A DNA stretch of 64,000 nt, taken from the NCBI GenBank assembly GCA_951406725.2, contig OX597830.1:57288001-57352000 (forward strand). The letters are read 5' to 3'. The notes under the pieces are model-generated. The model was not told the DNA's origin. It saw only the letters and a list, made by a program, of their open reading frames with translations, and searched no databases. Origin of the DNA: Octopus vulgaris (taxonomy: Eukaryota). Below are positions 30,792 through 60,830 of this stretch, piece after piece. The position numbers were made by a program, and so were the translations under genes. How positions within the stretch are numbered: position 1 is the stretch's first letter; the number at the start of each line of letters is the position of its first letter.

Positions 30792-32139
30792 TTATAAGTT
30801 TATATACGTGATCATTTCCTCTTGGTTAGGGGGTGTGGGGTTGGTATAGGGTTGAGGGGGTGCATACATTTGGCTGTTACTGATGTAATCCTGTCTCATG
30901 ACCATCGTATCCTGGGCATAATAAGGCTGTTGTGCATCAACATTGCTCAGGAAATTCTCTTGTTTTCTGTAGGTGAATGACTGGCCATTGTATGTACAAA
31001 ACTGCTGCGGTGGGACTTGATTTGCAGGATACAGATTGGTAAATTCCTGCTTCACTTGTACTTCACTTGGGTTTGGATTGGGGAGGTGGTTAGAGTTAGC
31101 AGCACTATTGCTATTGGTGCTGCTATTGCTGCCAAAAGGTTCCAATTGATGGTTTGTTCTATTTAAATTAATCACAACAGGCTTGGTATCCACGTTTGTT
31201 TGATTTGGGTATGGTGTTGGCAAAGACAAAGACACGCTGTTTGTAAGGTTGCAGTTGCTCGGTAACTTGACAGCAACACTTGTGTTAGTGACACCAGAAG
31301 ATGTGGTGGAAACTAAGTTGATATCATTTGATATTGAAGAATTGATATCACAGGTGTTAATAGGATTAGGCACTGGCCCAAGGCCATTCTCTGCTATAAC
31401 ACCACCATTATATAAAAGTGCAGTGTTGCCATCACACATGAGTGCTGCTGGAGCTGGTGGTAACGGTGGTTTGCAGGTAAGGGTGTGCTTCTTAAGTTGC
31501 TTTGAATATGAAAAAGACTTTTTACAGCTTTTACACTGAAACGGCTGTTCACCTGTATGAGTCCTCTGGTGAACAACCAAATTACTGCTACGAGCAAATG
31601 TTTTGTCACAGAAGGAACAGCTGAAAGGCTTCTCACCCGTGTGAGTGCGGATGTGTAATGTTAAGTTGTATGTGCGAGGAAATTTCTTTTTACAATATTT
31701 GCACTCAAAAGAATTCACTTTATGCGACCGAGTGTGTTCCCTTAATTCACTGAAGCAGGTGGCTGTCTTTTCACAGTACTGACACTGATACAGCTTGTCT
31801 CGATTGTGCTGGGTTTTGATGTGCTGGGTCAGCCCATACAGTCGAGACAGGGTTTTCTTGCAATACTCACAGGTGTAGCGTTTTTCTCCGCTACTATTTG
31901 TAGTACAAGCACCACCAACAGTGCTAGCGCTGCTACATCGACTGCTATTCAGGTTGTCACACTCAGAAGGGTGTTGCATCTTCATGTGTTGTTGCAGCTC
32001 CTCAGAACTATAAAATGTCTTTTGGCAGTGCTTGCACACTAATAGCTTCGCTTGAAGCTGTTCTGTTTTGGTGTCCAGAAGCTGTGAGAATCCAGGTGGT
32101 TGGCCAGCATTTATATCTGCTGCCATGCGTTGATGGTGG

Positions 32140-32174
<35 letters not shown>

Positions 32175-33203
32175 TGGATGAGTTTGGTGAGGAGGAAGAG
32201 GAGGTGGTGGTGGTGGAGGAGGGGCATGCTGACCAAATTCCAGCTGTCTGGCAGTGTTGCTATCAATTGATTGATTAAAGTCAATTTGGTTTTGAGGCTG
32301 AGGGAGATGCTGCAATGTTTGCGAAAAACTTATCTCTTCGATTTTCGGTTCAACTAGATGCTGCTGCTGCTGCTGTTGCTGTTGTTGTTGTTGCTGTTGC
32401 TGTTGTTGTTGCTGGGTTTGGAAATCCAAAGACATAGTTTTCACTTGTTCTGGAGAAGCAAAGTCAACCTGGCCAGGTGTTCCCACAGAATTGTTTACCT
32501 GTGAAACAAAATCTAATTGTTCGGTCTTGAGTTTCACTGGTTCATTAAAATTTAATTGTTCCAACTTGTTTTCATTATGCTGAATGAGATCTATCTGTTC
32601 AGCGTCTCCCATTGATTGTGCAAATCCAAATTGGCTGATTGTTTGGACTTTATCATCCACAGAGACAGACTGGTTAAAGTCAAGCTGCTGTTTGCTTAAC
32701 TGCTCAAAATCTAAATCAGACTTCTCGCTCTTCACCATTTCACTGAAGTCAATTTGCTCTTGTTTTACAACGGAACTCAAATTATTTATGTCCTCTGGTT
32801 CATTCTTTATTTGAACTGGGAAGGACAACTGTTGTGCTGCCACTACATCTAACTGCTCAGGGAATTCAAGAGTTCCTGATTTCAAATCCATTTGATGAGA
32901 GAACTCTATATCTAACTTACCAGTTTGTGATGTGGGAAACTGAATTGTTGCAGTATCATCACCTGTTGGCTGCTGCGGAATAAACATCAGGTGACTCGCA
33001 TCTGCACCTTGGATTATATGAGTCTGCTGAGCAAAGTCAAACTGTGTGACATCAATTTGTGGGAACTGTGTTGGTGAGCGCTGCGAAGGTTGTTGAACAT
33101 AATTCAGCTGACCAACAGTAATGGACGTTGGATCTGAGTTTCGTACAAAGTTACTTGCAGTTGGGAATGTCTGTAAGAAAGGTTTTTCAGTTTTAAAAGA
33201 CAT
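30792..33203 (-). CDS. C2H2 zinc-finger transcription factor, 803 aa, single coding exon
   Basis: Long intact ORF with 5 C2H2 fingers and a terminal C2HC finger (~31472-32037), TGEKPF/TGEQPF linkers, polyQ, polyP and polyH tracts. Confidence 0.95.
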
Positions 33204-33311
33204 CGTGACCAGTATTTGTAGCAGCTGGTTTCACTCATAAGCAGGAACTTATAAAAGAGTTTACACACTGTGGATGATTTCAATGTTGAGACAGCAGCAT
33301 GAAGTTGGATT

Positions 33312-36583: not shown

Positions 36584-37230
36584 ATCATCATCATTGTTTA
36601 ACGTCCACTTTCTGCGCTAGCACGGGTTGGACGGTTCGACCGGGGTCTGGGAAGCCAGGGCCTGCACTAGGCTCCAGTCTGATCTGGCAGTATTACTACA
36701 GCTGGATGCCCTTCCTAACGCCAACCACTCCGCAAGTGTAGTGGGTGCTTTTTACGTGCCACCTGCACAGGTGCCAGGGGGGTCTAGCATCGGCCACAAT
36801 CGGTTGGTGCTTTTAACGTGCCACTGGCACGGAAGCCAGCCAAGGCGGCGCTGGCATCGGCCACGTTCGGATGGTGCTTTTTTATGTGCCACCGGCACAG
36901 AAGCCAGTCGAGGCGGCGCTGGCAACGGCCACGTTCGGATGGCACTTTTTATGTGCCACCGGCACAGAAGCCAGTCGAGGCGGCGCTGGCATCGGCCGCG
37001 TTCGGATGGTGCTTTTTATGTGCCACCGGCACAGAAGCCAGTCGAGGCGGCGCTGGCATCGGCCGCGTTCGGATGGTGCTTTTTATGTGCCACCGGCACA
37101 GAAGCCAGTCGAGGCGGCGCTGGCAACGGCCACGTTCAGATGGTGCTTTTTATGTGCCACCGGCACAGGTATCAAAACTACTATTTCCATTGATATTTGC
37201 ACTTGACTCAACAGGTCTCCTCAAGCACAG
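36584..37230 (-). mobile_element. Repeat family C, young, with expanded 67-bp minisatellite
   Basis: Family C ends; GTGCCAC-initiated units at 36756, 36818, 36886, 36953, 37020, 37087, 37154. Confidence 0.9.
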
Positions 37231-39996: not shown

Positions 39997-40685
39997 AGCT
40001 TGCTTCTCAACCACATGGTTACAGGTTCAGTCCCACTGCATGGCACCTTGGGCAAATGTCTTTTACTGTCACTCTGGGCCAACCAAAGACTGTGAGTGGA
40101 TTTGGCAGACATAAACTTGAAGACTGTACAAAGGTGTGTGTGCATGTGTGTGTGTGTGTGTGTGTGTGCATTTGTCTCCTGCTCCCCACTACTTGACATC
40201 ATCATCATCATCATTTAATGTCTGCGTTCCATGTTGGCATGGGTTGGATAGTTTGACTGAGGACTAGCAAGGTAGGCAGCTGCACCAGGCTCCAATCTGA
40301 TCTGACAGAGTTTCTACAGCTGGATGCCCTTCCTAACACCAAGCACTCCAAGAGTGTAGTGGGTGCCTTTTATGTCCCACTGGCACTGGAGCCAGTCAGG
40401 TGGCACTGGAACCAGCCAGGTGGCACTGGCATCAACTATGCTCGAACGGTGCTTTTCATGTGCCACTGGCACTGGAGCCAGTCAGGTGGCACTGGCATCA
40501 ACTACGCTCGAACGGTGCTTTTTATGTGCCACTGGCACTGGAGCCAGTCATTTGTTTGCATTCCCGTAACTTAGCGGTTCAGGAAAAGAAACCAACAGAA
40601 TAAATAAACGACTTAAAAATAGAAAGTGTTGGAGTCAACTTACTCGACAAAAACTCTTCGAGGCAGTGCCCCAGCATGGCCAGAG
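39997..40685 (+). mobile_element. SINE family A with nested family C element (40197-40549)
   Basis: A body stops at ACTTGACA and resumes TTTGTTTGCATTCCCGTAACTTAGCGG after the C insert. Confidence 0.8.
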
Positions 40686-52683: not shown

Positions 52684-55330
52684 TTGGCCACCACTGCCAC
52701 CAAGCCACCCATCATACCAACACCAACGCCATTTCTACTAATGAATATAAGAGGCTTGCTGCAGAACAGCAGTAAATGCAAAATTGAGCACCTGAAGAAT
52801 CTTTCTGCATGTAATCAAGCTATATGCATTGCACTTACAGAAACACATCTATCTGCAGACATAAATGATGCGGAGATACCCCATACCAATGTATGCTGTC
52901 TTCTGTACAGACAGAAGAAAAAGATGTCACTGTGGAGTTGCAATGTACATCCGAGAAGATGTCACACCATTAACCCTGTTATTGAACTGGAACACGGTGT
53001 GTGACACACTCATGGTACATCTAAAGCAACTTGATATAGTGATATGCACACTATATTGCCCACCTGATGCCTCAAATCATGATGGAAAATTTGAGGAAAG
53101 CCTCAGTGTGATAAAGGAAGTACTAACACAATTGGATCAACATATTCCAGATGGGTGACTTCAACTTCCCCAACATCAGGTGTCCTGAGGGCAATATAAC
53201 CCCACGAATGACACACTAAGAGCGAAATCAAGCAGAATCTCTACTTGATCTTACAAAAATGCTATTCATGGAGCAGATCATCCTCTCTCCAACCAGGCAC
53301 AAAAATATCCTGGACCTCTGTTTTACAAACAATGTGGAAATTATCCACAATGTAAATATATCACTGACAATATTCTCAAACCATAACATGATAGAACTGA
53401 CAATGTATGGCCCAGAATTAACTAAAGATAAACTCCACACAGATGGCACTCAAACCCTATCCAGCCTAAATTTCTATAAGGCTGACTGGAAGTCACTTGA
53501 AAAACAGAAACTTTAGCAGGACAGGCCTAAAAGCCTCTCTATGCAAGACATAGATATGAAACTCAATTAATTCATATCAATAATGCAAGCCATATGCATT
53601 AAATACATCCGAGAGAAGGGAGCCAATACACAAAAAAACATCATTCCCCAAGACAGGAGAATACTCATGCAGCGGAGAATAAAGATCTCGAATCATTTCA
53701 ACAAACACATCAATGACAGTGGGAAATCCCAGCTGACAGAGATGGAAAATAAACTCAAAATCTCCCATGGAAAAAAAAGAGAGGAAAATCCTAAAGCTTT
53801 CTACATGTTGGCAAAGGAGTCTGCCTCAGTATGCTATAAGATAGGGCCACTATTTGGCAAAAATGGCTCACTAAATGCAGACCCAGGGAAGATAAGTGAA
53901 GCACTAAATAAACAATTCCAAAGTGTTTTCACTTTTTCCCTCTGGAAAATATGCAAATAAACAAGCCGAAGGAGTTTTTCAATGTAATTAATCTATTTCG
54001 AAAAGAGGCAACCATCGATTACATCAACATAACAGAAGAGGATGTAATATTGGCCATTGATGAGATGAGATCGAACTCAGCAACAGGCCCAGATGGACAC
54101 CCAGCTGTTCAACAAGGTGGGAGAGTGCTGCATGATTTTCCAAAGGGCAGGAGTCAGACAGCTCTAGCCAATGATGCTCACTCTAAAGAGGAACCAATTC
54201 TCAGTGAAGTCCCACAAAGAGCTGTACTGGGACCACTACTATTTGTGGTGGCCCCCTCAGACATGCCATCTACAGTACAGTCAGCCAATCTGACCAGTTA
54301 TGCTAATGACACCAAAGTATTGCAGGCAGTTAGGAACCCAGAGGACACCATAAAACTGCAGAAAGACCTGAACGAAATATACAAATGGGCTTACAAAAAT
54401 AACATGCAGTTCAAGGCTATGAAATTTCAGGCACTCCACTATTGGTCAAACATCAGGCTAAAATCGGAATACAGTGGACCAGAAGGTAATACTATCCCAG
54501 AGTCAAAGTCGGTGCATAACCTGAGGGTTCACATGAGCAATGATGCAACATTCCATGTGCATATTACCAAGATGGCAACACTGTGCAGGCGAGTGGCTGG
54601 ACGGATTCTGAGGACATTCAAGAACCAGGAAAAGGGAGGGGCCCTGCTACCCCTACGGAGTACTTTTGTTCTCAGCTGCCTGGACTACTGCTCTCAACTA
54701 TGGTCCTCAGAGAGAGTGAAACAAATTGTGGAACTCGAAGCAATACACAAAGAAGATTGACACGATGCAAAAGATGAGCTACTGGGAGAGGCTAAGGGAG
54801 CTGAGTCTTTATTTCTGGGAGAGGCTAAGGGAGCTGAGTCTTTATTTCTGGGAGAGGCTAAGGGAGCTGAGTCTTTATTTCTGGGAGAGGCTAAGGGAGC
54901 TGAGTCTTTATTTCTGGGAGAGGCTAAGGGAGCTGAGTCTTTATTTCTGGGAGAGGCTAAGGGAGCTGAGTCTTTATTTCCTGGAGAGAAGAAGAGAGAG
55001 ATATGCAGTGATATATATATTTGGAAGATCTTAGAGGGTTTAGCTCCCAATTTTGGAATTGACAGCTATACCAATCCTCAAACTAGACAGCACTGCTTCA
55101 CACCAAAGATCCCATCTTCCCCATCTAAAATAAGGACTCAGTACTGAAATAGTCTGGGTTTCGAGGGCCTGCAATTGTTCAACATCCTTCTAGGCAACCT
55201 TAGAGATCTACATGGTATTGATGTGGAAGTTTTCTGGACAGGTTTCTCTCTGTGGTACCAGATGAACCCACATCACGGCAGGAGACGCAAAGAAGTGTAA
55301 CTCCATCCAGAAACCGGAAACCATACCAAA
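52684..55330 (+). mobile_element. CR1/L2-clade LINE ORF2 (APE endonuclease + RT), frameshifted, RT internally deleted
   Basis: MNIRGL, ALTETHL, GVAMYI, GDFNFP, PTR.KNILDL, NFYKADW, VPQRAVLGPLLF, YANDTK, LQKDL..IYKWA, LDYCSQLWS. Confidence 0.9.
54782..54979 (+). repeat. Perfect 33-bp tandem repeat x6 inside the LINE
   Basis: CTGGGAGAGGCTAAGGGAGCTGAGTCTTTATTT, encoding WERLRELSLYF. Confidence 0.95.
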
Positions 55331-57494: not shown

Positions 57495-58307
57495 TAGAGG
57501 GTTGTTATTGAAAATATCAACATTAGCAGATAATTTAGATAATCTAAATGAAATATTCTTTACTAAGTTTTTAGTAATTGCTCCAGGATGATTACTAAAT
57601 TTGCTAATGTACTTAAGATTGGTCAACGGTTTACGATATGGGAGGTAAGAGTCACTGTGTAAATTAAGTGTAATATCTAAAAAGTTGGCCTTCGTCATAT
57701 CGTCATCAAAAACGATTTTTAAGCCCATTCTACTGAAAAAATTAACTAAACTATTCTTAACTTTTTGTACCTTTTGGTTGGAAACATTTTGGAGGTAAAG
57801 TAAACAATCATCATGATATAGACCTCCATAAATGTTAGGGAACTCTTCAGCCATTTCAAAAAGAATATATATACAGACCACATCAGCTATCTGTGCTGAA
57901 TCAGCACTTCCCATTGGTATATCGAAACTATCTGGTGTGTCTTTACGGACCCACAACTTATCATCAAATTTAATAATAGATCTTCTGGCTGCCAACACAA
58001 CATTAATTTCTTCTCGGGTGAGACCAGCTTTGTTATGAGCAAGCCAAAGTGCCTTATTAAGTACTATTGGATTGATAGATGAATAAAAATTGGAAATATC
58101 AAACTGGATAAACTTAGTACTCACCTTATTGTTAATAGAACTAAACCAGTCAACTACTTCAAACGAATTAGTCCATAAACTAAGTTTTAATGTTTTGATT
58201 AAATTAGGAATATATTTATCTAGTATATTTTTACTAAGGATACCGATGTCAGAGCTAGAAGGGCAGATAAGCCTTAATGATGGGTTAGTAAAAAAATTTC
58301 TATCCAT
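57495..58307 (-). mobile_element. Naiad-like Penelope reverse transcriptase (inverted segment)
   Basis: RLICPSSSDIG, W.NS..V.DWF, FDISNFYSSI, FDIPMGS.D.A, GLYHDD, NFLDITLNL, PYRKP, YISKFSNHP. Confidence 0.9.
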
Positions 58308-58577
58308 TACTCAACATTTAGGGATAGAAATAAATGGAATAGTACCGGTCTCAGCAAACTGATTTGGGATTTAAAAGACCACAATGAACAATTTCATTTA
58401 GAATGGTTGATTCTCTCAATTTCGATACCATATGACAAAGGCAAGAAATTCTGTCTTCTCTGCAATTCTGAGCTATTTTTCATTATTTTTTCTAAAAATA
58501 CTCTAGTAAACACAGTTATAGAGCGAGCATACAGATGTAAGCATTGACAAAAACATACATTTAGTGCATATAAGTAG
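58305..58577 (+). mobile_element. Naiad-like GIY-YIG endonuclease C-terminus (not in ORF track)
   Basis: HYSTFRDRNKWNSTGLSKLIWDLKD...W.IL....PYDKGKKFCLLCNSE...RCKH*QKH...*. Confidence 0.85.
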
Positions 58578-58778
58578 TCTCTATCATTATATATAATTTA
58601 AACTTTAATTTCCTTTATATTTAACATTCACTATTAATATCCCTACTCTTTCTGTTAGCTACTTATGACGTTATATCATATAACGTTTTTTTAAACAATA
58701 TTAATAGCGTTCAGTTAATCACTATACAAATCCATCATTTTTTGCTAAAATATCTTATTGACGAGTTTCGTTTTTTTC

Positions 58779-58862
58779 ACTTTCTTGAGGAGAAGATTGC
58801 ATTGTTTATACCATTTATTCTTTTGAATAGTATCAGTGGAATTTTCGAAACGTGTCGAAAGT
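58779..58862 (+). ncRNA. Type I hammerhead ribozyme in the Penelope 3' terminal region (C3U variant)
   Basis: ACTTTC TTGAGGA GAAGATT...AATTTTC GAAA CGTG TC GAAAGT; long stem II, GUC ending 58856. Confidence 0.7.
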
Positions 58863-58901
58863 AAAAATATTTGATTACACCTGCGTTAACTTCATTTTTT
58901 A

Positions 58902-58961
<60 letters not shown>

Positions 58962-59097
58962 AAACATAATCTAATAGGGTAATAAAATAAATTATTATTA
59001 CCAGTGGCCTAGCACAAAAGACGAATTAGTCATTAGACTATATATTTTTCGTATAGAAATATAATAAACAGTCTGTGCATCTAGGATTATGAAGGCT

Positions 59098-59174
59098 TCC
59101 CACTGAAGACCCTGGCCTGGCAAATATATTCTGTGTGTTTGCTAAAAAATAGGTAGAAACCGTTCGGTCTGGGA
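59098..59174 (+). ncRNA. Type I hammerhead ribozyme
   Basis: TCCCA CTGAAGA C CCT...AGG TA GAAA CCG TT CGG TC TGGGA; GUC ends 59169. Confidence 0.85.
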
Positions 59175-59535
59175 TTTAGCTGAGATGGTAAATGTTTTTA
59201 ATTTTCATTCCTTTCATGAATTTATCCATTTTTGTGTTTCTAACACTACGCTTCCTTATTTGGAAGCCTTTTATTATATTTCTATACAAAAAATATATAG
59301 TCTAATGACTAATTCGTCGTTTGTGCTAGGCCACTGGAAATAGTAATTTATTTTATTACCCTATTTGATTATGTTTAAATATTGCTTGATAAATTTGTTC
59401 GTAAATTTTTACCGGCATCCTCTCTGTTCGCCGGGTATGATTTGCGTCTGCGCAGAGGTTTGAAAAGTTAGGATATACAAACCGTTAGATCTATATGTGC
59501 TTCTAACAGTCTGTGTGTCCAGGATTACGAAGGCT

Positions 59536-59611
59536 TCCCACTGAAGACCCTGGCCTGGCAAATATATTCTGTGTGTTTGCTAAAAGGAGGTAGAAACCGT
59601 TCGGTCTGGGA
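59536..59611 (+). ncRNA. Type I hammerhead ribozyme (second tandem copy)
   Basis: Same motif as 59098-59174; GUC ends 59606. Confidence 0.85.
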
Positions 59612-59739
59612 TTTAGCTGAGATGGTAAATGTTTTTAATTTTCATTCCTTTCATGAATTTATCCATTTTTGTGTTTCTAGCACTACGCTTCTTTATTTGG
59701 AAGCCTTTTATTATATTATATATATGTATATATACATAA

Positions 59740-60830
59740 TATTAATAATAATAGTAAGGGAATATAATTCCAAACTTACAGGGAAAAACTCAATTTAGCA
59801 ATTCTAAATCAAATTTCATGATATATAATATATGTATATAATTTAGAGAAATAACCTCTATTAAGCAATTCAATAGTGAAAGACATTATCAATATTAAAT
59901 AGAAAAAATTAAATATACTATAATAAATATTATTTAAAAAATCAATAAATTAAATAAATACGCCCTATTGGGCAGTTTTTAAGCTAGCTCCTATGGAGGG
60001 CTCTTCATTAAGCCTTGGGCCCAACAATGACACTTTATGCATTGAGTACATATTAAATTTTATTAAACTTGAACAATATTTTTCAAGCAATGAACAATTT
60101 TCATCAAAACAAGGATATAATTTGTCAACTTGGAACTTATTGTAAAGCTTCATGATAAACAACATATTTTGTCGTCCCATTCGAGGAACAGTACAAATAG
60201 CTCATTTTCATTCCCTACCCTTGAACAACCAACTGGCAACAATAAACTTACCTTTTAAAAGTCCAACGATAATTCTTCTGCCACCATTAATTTAAAGATA
60301 ATTTGATATATGTCGGGCCTTACTTTTCGTACAAACAATTATTTGTAGTATCTGGTACATATCTAAACCCCTGCTCATAGTTTGATGGAAAATTACACCA
60401 CTGTCGCTAAAAACTATTTTAAAGTGCGATTCTTATGGTTTGGAATTACTCTAAATGTATTTGACCATAAAGATGTTTGAAATTTCATATTTTTTAGTAT
60501 TTTTTTAAGGTAATAACAAATTTAGTCAAATCTATTTTCATGCAGTCAGAGTGTGCTAAGTTTCTATAGCTCTGACAGCCAATGGCTTGAAAACAGGTCT
60601 GCCAAATTTTTTTAATATCTGAAAAAATACTAAGTTTCCAACATTCTTATGGTAGAGAGTTGTGAAAAGTAATATTGTATGAGAGAGTGAGTTCAATATG
60701 TATTTCAGTTCCAAACATTATGGTTAAATTACTTGATACAGTTATAATATTTAGAGAAAGATTCTTTCAAAATGTTTATTTAGGAAATTACTTTTGGAAA
60801 TATTTATAATATTTAGATAAATATTTTTTT
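59740..60830 (-). mobile_element. Longer, older relative of the 43960-44415 element
   Basis: AGGGAATATAATTCCAAACTTACAGGGAAAAA and TTAGAGAAATAACCTCTATTAAGCAATTCAA match its 3' end; right boundary uncertain. Confidence 0.55.

Follow-up and report, generated by a model that had tools for sequence, protein, structure and literature searches.

By what route the RNA circles of animal retrozymes return to DNA, and which enzyme takes them there, are matters that still stand as hypotheses. A locus with two hammerhead motifs in Octopus vulgaris puts both questions in concrete form: is its repeated unit a retrozyme, and from what template, and by what enzyme, were its copies made? The window is the whole stretch of 64 000 nucleotides that was analysed, and positions below are counted within it unless they are given as unit positions. 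The reading we consider probable makes the 437-nt unit a non-coding hammerhead repeat, likely a non-LTR retrozyme, with a circular monomer as its template and, as copying enzyme, a Penelope-like one of the Hydra type that targets (TA)n.

Layout of the locus

The whole insertion, an inverted arm plus 1.49 tandem units, spans 58962..59717 (no single strand) and was delimited by repeat finding and unit alignment, with (TA)n on both sides. Counted with 59170 as unit position 1, the order of its segments is 101-207 (inverted), 336-437, 1-437 and 1-111. The inverted arm (58962..59068, minus strand, unit positions 101-207) is a 107-nt copy at 95%, in agreement with the inverted partial copy that the original prediction had placed ahead of the monomer; its 3′ end is the distal priming patch and is oriented toward the left (TA)n. 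The remaining parts lie on the plus strand: a 5′-truncated upstream unit (59067..59169, positions 336-437, 93% to the full unit), the non-coding 437-nt monomer between the two predicted cut sites (59170..59606, from motif spacing) and a repeated unit start (59607..59717, positions 1-111) that ends at the proximal TA-like priming patch. Within the monomer, again on the plus strand, this proximal patch falls at 59270..59286 (unit about 105-117) and the distal TA-like patch at 59372..59382 (unit about 203-213), and many genomic copies end at each. Repeat finding gave direct repeats of 136 nt at 97% and of 81 nt at 95%. The locus had been described as a tandem double-hammerhead unit; two complete cores are indeed present, but 1.49 units and an inverted arm do not make a full dimer.

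The element is flanked by identical 17-mers (left copy 58945..58961, inside the (TA)n target 58905-58961; right copy 59718..59734; both plus strand), which have a G at the same place and support the limits 58962-59717. As these are of low complexity, we treat them as a candidate target-site duplication only. The window units are ~3% off the commonest letters of their own subfamily, where the median is 2.1% (157 segments), so this is an ordinary insertion and not an especially young one.

GC content over 58001-60000 is 29%. The monomer 59170-59606 folds better than shuffled sequences (z -3.5 linear, -4.3 circular), and the circular-fold z values for four natural monomers, with 25 shuffles each, were -4.3, -4.3, -2.6 and -2.7. 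That the 437 nt between the cuts are non-coding, as first proposed, held up, with no open reading frame kept across subfamilies. A coding unit was considered on account of a 108-aa stop-to-stop frame, which had no better than a sub-threshold Pfam hit, and was rejected, the frame not being kept across subfamilies.

Several elements cluster at the (TA)n microsatellite of this locus. By eye, the right flank (59735-60110) is like the flanks of two other loci (L119 and L108), and these are probably ends of other TA-targeting repeats. Elsewhere in the window, an 812-aa open frame at 30792-33230 (minus strand) has a C2H2 zinc-finger cluster with poly-Q, poly-P and poly-H runs and is likely a host transcription-factor exon. 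A degenerate LINE-like reverse transcriptase fragment lies at 53912-54760 (plus strand; Pfam RVT_1, E 1.8e-4) with a 33-nt tandem repeat after it (54782-54988), and related GC-rich minisatellite arrays with 66-67-nt units occupy 36744-37168 and 40401-40550.

Two hammerheads with an unusual stem II

Both hammerheads are of type I and lie on the plus strand. Hammerhead 1 (59098..59174) consists of stem I TCCCA (59098-59102) and TGGGA (59170-59174), core CTGAAGA (59103-59109), GAAA (59156-59159), stem III A-CCG-TT-CGG-T and a GTC ending at 59169, after which the cut is predicted; an unpaired A stands at 59155 and a rare C at 59110. Hammerhead 2 (59536..59611) has its unpaired A at 59592 and its rare C at 59548, and its GTC ends at 59606, the predicted cut following 437 nt after the first. 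The stems, cores and GTC ends of both were thus found in the sequence where the original prediction had them. An Rfam search returned no hammerhead match here, neither at gathering score nor at E<=1. The type I core (C3-U4-G5-A6-N7-G8-A9, G12-A13-A14, A15.1-U16.1 and H17) is present in the window motifs, and what is absent is the pair 10.1-11.1 directly next to G12.

The imperfect stem II base that had been remarked upon in both copies has two components. One is family-wide: an unpaired A separates the last stem II pair from GAAA in 83/83 aligned copies, and the pair below it is A with U in 77 of the 83. The other is an A>C change at the stem II base, found in 4/83 copies, both window copies among these, which leaves a C-U mismatch and lowers the predicted pairing of the base from about 0.75 to 0.06 and 0.01 in the two window copies. 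Because this rare change is in both copies, the predicted release of a 437-nt RNA from the window locus itself is doubtful. We put the chance of useful cleavage by the window copy somewhat short of even, and the locus may be about as likely impaired as active owing to its own A>C change. It is one of few loci with two complete hammerheads.

Stem II is long, and internal loops are present in stems I and II. Across relatives the stem II base is G-C, G-U, A-U, A-A or an unpaired A. We claim no evolutionary order for these states; the tree (59/134 rows) is unrooted and mixes A-A with bulged-A rows. Stem III is near-palindromic in all subfamilies, with a predicted self-duplex of -12.6 to -15.0 kcal/mol versus 0 to -1.6 kcal/mol for the hairpin. 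When monomers were folded, the core paired with the 3′ strand of stem III, whose own probability was about 0 in 6/6 copies tried. Given the near-palindromic sequence of stem III and its poor stability in hairpin form, cleavage would probably take place as a double hammerhead.

A dispersed family with a conserved ribozyme

Chance does not account for the 437-nt unit, copies of which are dispersed through the genome as a family. A search of the genome (2.8 Gb, 227 contigs) with the unit gave at least 106 matches within the best 40 of 1906 candidates, with 85-96% identity to the unit at the best 30 loci. For the 19-mer around the cut there are 64 exact genomic matches (backwards control 0), for a relaxed whole-core hammerhead pattern 155 (control 0) and for a non-ribozyme 19-mer, with up to one mismatch, 1226 (control 2). 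Older sister subfamilies with the same layout account for 584 matches (control 1), and one sister subfamily, with 14 matches, is fully canonical in its core. The spacing of tandem hammerheads across subfamilies is 431-462 nt. In the sampled loci the copies are dispersed and sub-dimeric and do not form tandem arrays; no triple unit was present among the 64 exact matches, nor among the 100 of 155 relaxed-pattern matches listed. Parts of the family are covered by assembled contigs from sequencing runs that are RNA only by conjecture; these carry no information on ends, strand or circles and are given no weight here.

Many of the older sister copies (L168-L197, L228-L271) have U3 (UUGAUGA) or, at the cut site, GUA; at the base of stem II they have A-A, A-U, G-U or G-C. 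An unrelated, canonical-looking type I hammerhead (CTGACGA-GCCTA...TAGGC-GAAA) lies about 800 nt from one unit copy (L025:2747-2839, minus strand).

Conservation was measured on 162 stretches (120 loci), collected through DNA similarity or with non-ribozyme words. It was 0.98 over 10 core columns versus 0.76 over 199 others, with 0/10000 random draws as high, in a sample whose profile had pattern-selected copies as its seed and in which queries including the ribozyme had supplied half of the loci. Position 7 is free (A 51, U 61, C 20 of 133) and drifts while A6 and G8 hold steady, position 17 is C or A, and the full core is kept in 106/129 spanning copies. Among 18 hand-picked representatives, 96.8% of cells are paired and 6/18 pairs have changed on both sides, with each of stems I, II and III represented; slid controls reached at most 50%, and sequence relatedness inflates the shuffle control. 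Comparison of the copies indicates a hammerhead that is conserved and covarying, and real at the family level.

Insertion footprints

The footprints of insertion were read from a non-redundant set of 165 arms, each at least 60 nt long and at least 82% identical, at 115 loci, out of 264 arms found. Their 3′ ends, as placed by blast, concentrate at two sites, unit 105-135 (59/165) and unit 200-215 (71/165), together 130/165; (TA)4 adjoins the end in 115 of these 130, and both sites are TA-like within the unit itself. Only three of the 165 arms end near the cut site. The cut junction is crossed by 113/165, with nine more split there only by the aligner, and the junction columns are gap-free in 83/83 copies. 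Genomic copies with permuted ends, which had been suggested as a check on the original prediction, are present. The 5′ ends are variable, with no pile-up at the cut: arms truly starting at positions 1-8 number 3/165, about the expectation for uniform truncation. Head-to-head inverted arms occur in 41/115 loci. The longest arm, at 822 nt, amounts to 1.9 units, and six of the 165 cross two junctions, four of them with a whole upstream hammerhead. Beside the candidate duplication of 17 nt at the window locus there is one of 16 nt, non-TA, at L025; overall, duplications were scored in 12/114 insertions versus a control mean of 4.7 and maximum of 9, and are mostly of low complexity.

Partial tandems, fixed 3′ ends, 5′ truncation, inverted 5′ copies and a microsatellite bias make up a Penelope-like insertion pattern. 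This layout, together with two ends of the internal-initiation type, leads us to conclude that copying used a circle or else a tandem transcript left uncut.

Variants shared between laps of the same locus bear on that choice. They number 5.6 per 1000 sites for tandem laps and 8.9 for inverted ones, versus 0.87 between loci (63 loci), and make up only 22-35% of within-locus variants. At seven loci (L002, L005, L007, L015, L018, L021 and L095) variants private to the locus are present in both laps. Gene conversion or template jumps could give shared within-locus variants too. The two arms of L017, and likewise the two window units, differ at sites that are variable elsewhere in the family; such mixing of subvariants is no less compatible with two templates, a tandem source of mixed composition or gene conversion than with a circle.

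The neighbouring element and the candidate partner enzyme

To the left of the unit, and not part of it, is a 5′-inverted fragment of a Hydra-type Penelope-like element (57501..58904, no single strand). Its reverse transcriptase (57501-58298) is on the minus strand; its endonuclease end and 3′ UTR (58284-58904) are on the plus strand, as is its own degenerate hammerhead (58758-58856), and it ends in the same (TA)n as the unit. The hammerhead-like motif of this family has U in place of C3 family-wide (TTGACGA or TTGACAA). The family is young and abundant (the best 150 of 13056 candidates are at 96-100% identity), and 778-aa open frames are intact in three copies (L105-L107); the hammerhead is apparently degenerate in spite of the family's recent activity. 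The protein motifs DKT, RWL, CxxC and CxH match the description of the Hydra clade, to which, judged by motifs against that description, the family fits; a Pfam search was blank. Its copies have a permuted layout like the unit's, with two 3′ ends in (TA)n.

The neighbour was considered as the parent of the unit and rejected, its UTRs and hammerhead differing from the unit's. No copy of the unit was found within 1.5 kb of 29 other neighbour-family copies. Alignments of the unit with this family gave nothing better than E 0.036, in A/T-rich words, profile searches were blank, and no homology was found between the unit and the Hydra-type ends tested. A shared 3′ recognition motif, GCTA..CC.CTGGTA, was also rejected: shuffles scored as high in 25-293/300 trials, the pattern was made after the fact and it is absent from the window copy; it is kept only as a lead. 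Different Hydra-type families (3′ ends of L106, L124, L217 and L266) have in common the short motif TTTGCT-R-...-GGT, placed 65-71 nt ahead of the distal 3′ end and succeeded by a hairpin with a short tail; it is a possible reverse transcriptase recognition signal. Something loosely like it occurs in the retrozyme 47-53 nt short of the distal end, a resemblance to which alignment tests gave no significance.

Unit and neighbour stand side by side because they have the (TA)n target in common. As no sequence common to both was detected, the partner is inferred from target and layout only. It is most likely an enzyme of Hydra type, with Naiad elements as an alternative; the target alone does not name the partner, because Naiad elements target (TA)n in cephalopods too.

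A proposed circular template and its alternatives

The repeat has a type I hammerhead per short unit (437 nt) and, at the window locus, two consecutive hammerheads, is non-coding and is without its own reverse transcriptase, and by these testable features it is assigned to the non-LTR retrozymes. The retrozyme-like layout originally proposed is sustained at the level of the family by the non-coding unit, the conserved and covarying hammerhead and the circularly permuted copies. Against it, the unpaired A before GAAA is a deviation in the core, and it is family-wide. A plant LTR retrozyme, a class with type III hammerheads in LTRs, a PBS, a PPT and a 4-bp duplication, was rejected: the hammerhead is type I, not type III, and the copies are circularly permuted with variable ends.

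In the cycle we propose, a two-hammerhead transcript would be cut to the monomer and the monomer ligated into a circle, by analogy with the RtcB ligation of mussel and axolotl retrozymes. A nicked TA end would then prime on one of the two patches, reverse transcription would proceed once to twice round the circle, and a second priming from the opposite nick would yield the inverted arm. The partner would be a Penelope-like enzyme, most likely of Hydra type. A circle is favoured by a unit length that stays at 431-462 across subfamilies without any long array; among the 165 arms, none was long enough to be a lasting linear master. A more specific form of this proposal holds that the RNAs are small circles of a long-lived lineage, that the hammerhead with the extra A between stem II and G12 cleaves, and that the copies are rolling-circle, target-primed footprints of a Hydra-type enzyme starting at the two (TA)n-like patches. 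We advance it tentatively, as a conjecture more apt to fail than to hold.

The remaining explanations concern the template, the status of the unit and the state of the ribozyme. The unit could be a non-autonomous Penelope-like derivative copied from uncut linear transcripts, with partial tandems arising from tandem source loci or template jumps and the hammerhead kept for some other step. Uncut RNA is indeed the main substrate, cleavage not being needed, of the one Penelope-like element studied in vitro, that of the anole (PMC11167929, accessible part); the octopus copies run uncut through the cut site, some loci have arms of different subvariants, and the ribozyme core is atypical and, as modelled, weak as a monomer. 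Yet internal priming with 5′ truncation shortens a linear template at each generation, whereas several subfamilies keep the whole unit in arms of at most 1.9 units; junctions are seamless in all copies aligned, and seven loci have, in both laps, variants seen in no other locus. We consider a linear template unlikely, while granting it some weight. A SINE-like repeat whose hammerhead is a mere relic, with cleavage lost throughout the bulged-A lineage, would suit the unpaired A in every aligned copy, the lack of an Rfam match and a predicted competing inactive fold. This reading is hard to reconcile with the compensated stem II and III changes within bulged-A lineages (ACCU/AGGU to AACU/AGUU; CCG/CGG to CUG/CAG) or with a position 7 that drifts while A6 and G8 do not, and we regard it as very improbable.

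The original prediction had itself named a further competitor, in which the unit serves as pseudo-LTR to a coding Penelope-like element located elsewhere in the genome; the copies would then be truncated ends. The layout is that of Penelope-like insertions (PMC8557442, accessible part), one locus (L189) joins a 78-nt endonuclease end to unit position 225, and the searches score the best 40 candidates with flanks of 1.5 kb at most loci. In the sampled loci, though, no RT-endonuclease frame was found between repeats: with one Hydra-type protein as probe, and flanks of 1.5 kb mostly and about 4 kb upstream for 44 loci, a Penelope-like ORF piece lay upstream on the same strand in 5/207 hammerhead-region loci, and four of the five were separated from the unit by (TA)n. 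Positions 214-437 continue without an ORF in all subfamilies seen, and the L189 join occurs once in 44 matches. This junction (L189, 900-1670), between a retrozyme relative and the endonuclease end of another Hydra-type family, was rejected as parent element or template switch, being a single case and probably a nested insertion: its Penelope part has the inversion breakpoint of another locus (L217), whose UTR is unrelated to the unit. On the loci sampled a pseudo-LTR origin seems improbable, though the unit may have a distant or extinct parent.

Copying from a circular monomer is the probable reading that we retain. The octopus family leaves readable footprints: priming sites fixed at two places, copies that pass through the cut site, and paired inverted arms; and an intact, young candidate partner ORF exists in the same genome. 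If the extra-A hammerhead cleaves and a Hydra-type enzyme does the copying, the hypothesized retrozyme cycle could be tested in vitro from end to end. The natural stem II series among the relatives suits structure-function tests, and, should the bulged-A ribozyme be active, standard hammerhead searches would undercount such elements, Rfam having missed the window motifs.

Comparison with known systems

The comparisons that follow rely on the accessible parts of the papers cited. Animal non-LTR retrozymes are non-coding repeats of 150-450 nt (350-390 nt in mussels) with a type I hammerhead per unit, modelled as circles that are primed and copied into tandem cDNA (PMC7229834). With these the octopus unit has in common a low GC content, a highly paired predicted circle and coexistence with Penelope-like elements, and their target duplications of >4 bp may be set beside its candidate 17 nt. 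They form dimers to 62-mers, whereas the octopus copies are dispersed and under two units long. The octopus unit is also unlike the retrozymes described there in its (TA)n target, reached via two fixed TA-like patches, in its frequent inverted arms, and in its hammerhead, where stem II is long and internally looped and an unpaired A precedes GAAA. For those retrozymes circles have been demonstrated; for the octopus unit a circle is predicted.

The same general thesis has been put forward by Li, Clavereau & Pollet 2026 for Xenopus retrozymes, seen as non-autonomous Penelope-like derivatives with units of 51-972 bp and mostly few repeats; eight of nine dimers did not cleave in vitro, and the accessible text covers no mollusc (bioRxiv 10.64898/2026.07.22.740005). 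The Xenopus units are tied to pseudo-LTRs by homology, whereas the octopus unit, for which no homologous pseudo-LTR was found, is tied by target and insertion layout. Elements of the Hydra clade resemble it in their (TA)n target, partial tandems, inverted 5′ copies and hammerheads; non-autonomous partial-tandem elements are described from Chlamys, and a Hydra family is listed for an octopus (PMC8557442). The unit differs from that clade in encoding nothing and in having no homology to such Hydra-type ends as were compared with it. In the green anole, Poseidon nicks and extends both strands and has two internal initiation sites giving two fixed genomic 3′ ends (PMC11167929), a mode also proposed for the unit; Poseidon initiates at sites not homologous to its target, whereas both sites of the unit resemble (TA)n.

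Strict hammerhead descriptors exclude mispairs next to the core (PMC3088659). In natural variants stem II can be weak or mismatched at its base (U-U) or can gain a nucleotide on its 5′ side; a nucleotide gained 3′, between 11.1 and G12, is not among the variants in the accessible parts of PMC3088659 and PMC4209133. Hammerheads with palindromic stem III work as dimers (PMC4209133), and the greater predicted stability of duplex over hairpin in the unit is the pattern described for these. We found no published description of this octopus family in the accessible literature, subscription papers and repeat databases lying outside our scope. The class, that of retrozymes, is known; what sets this family apart is its occurrence as dispersed sub-dimeric copies, the targeting of a microsatellite via two patches and the unpaired A beside the core.
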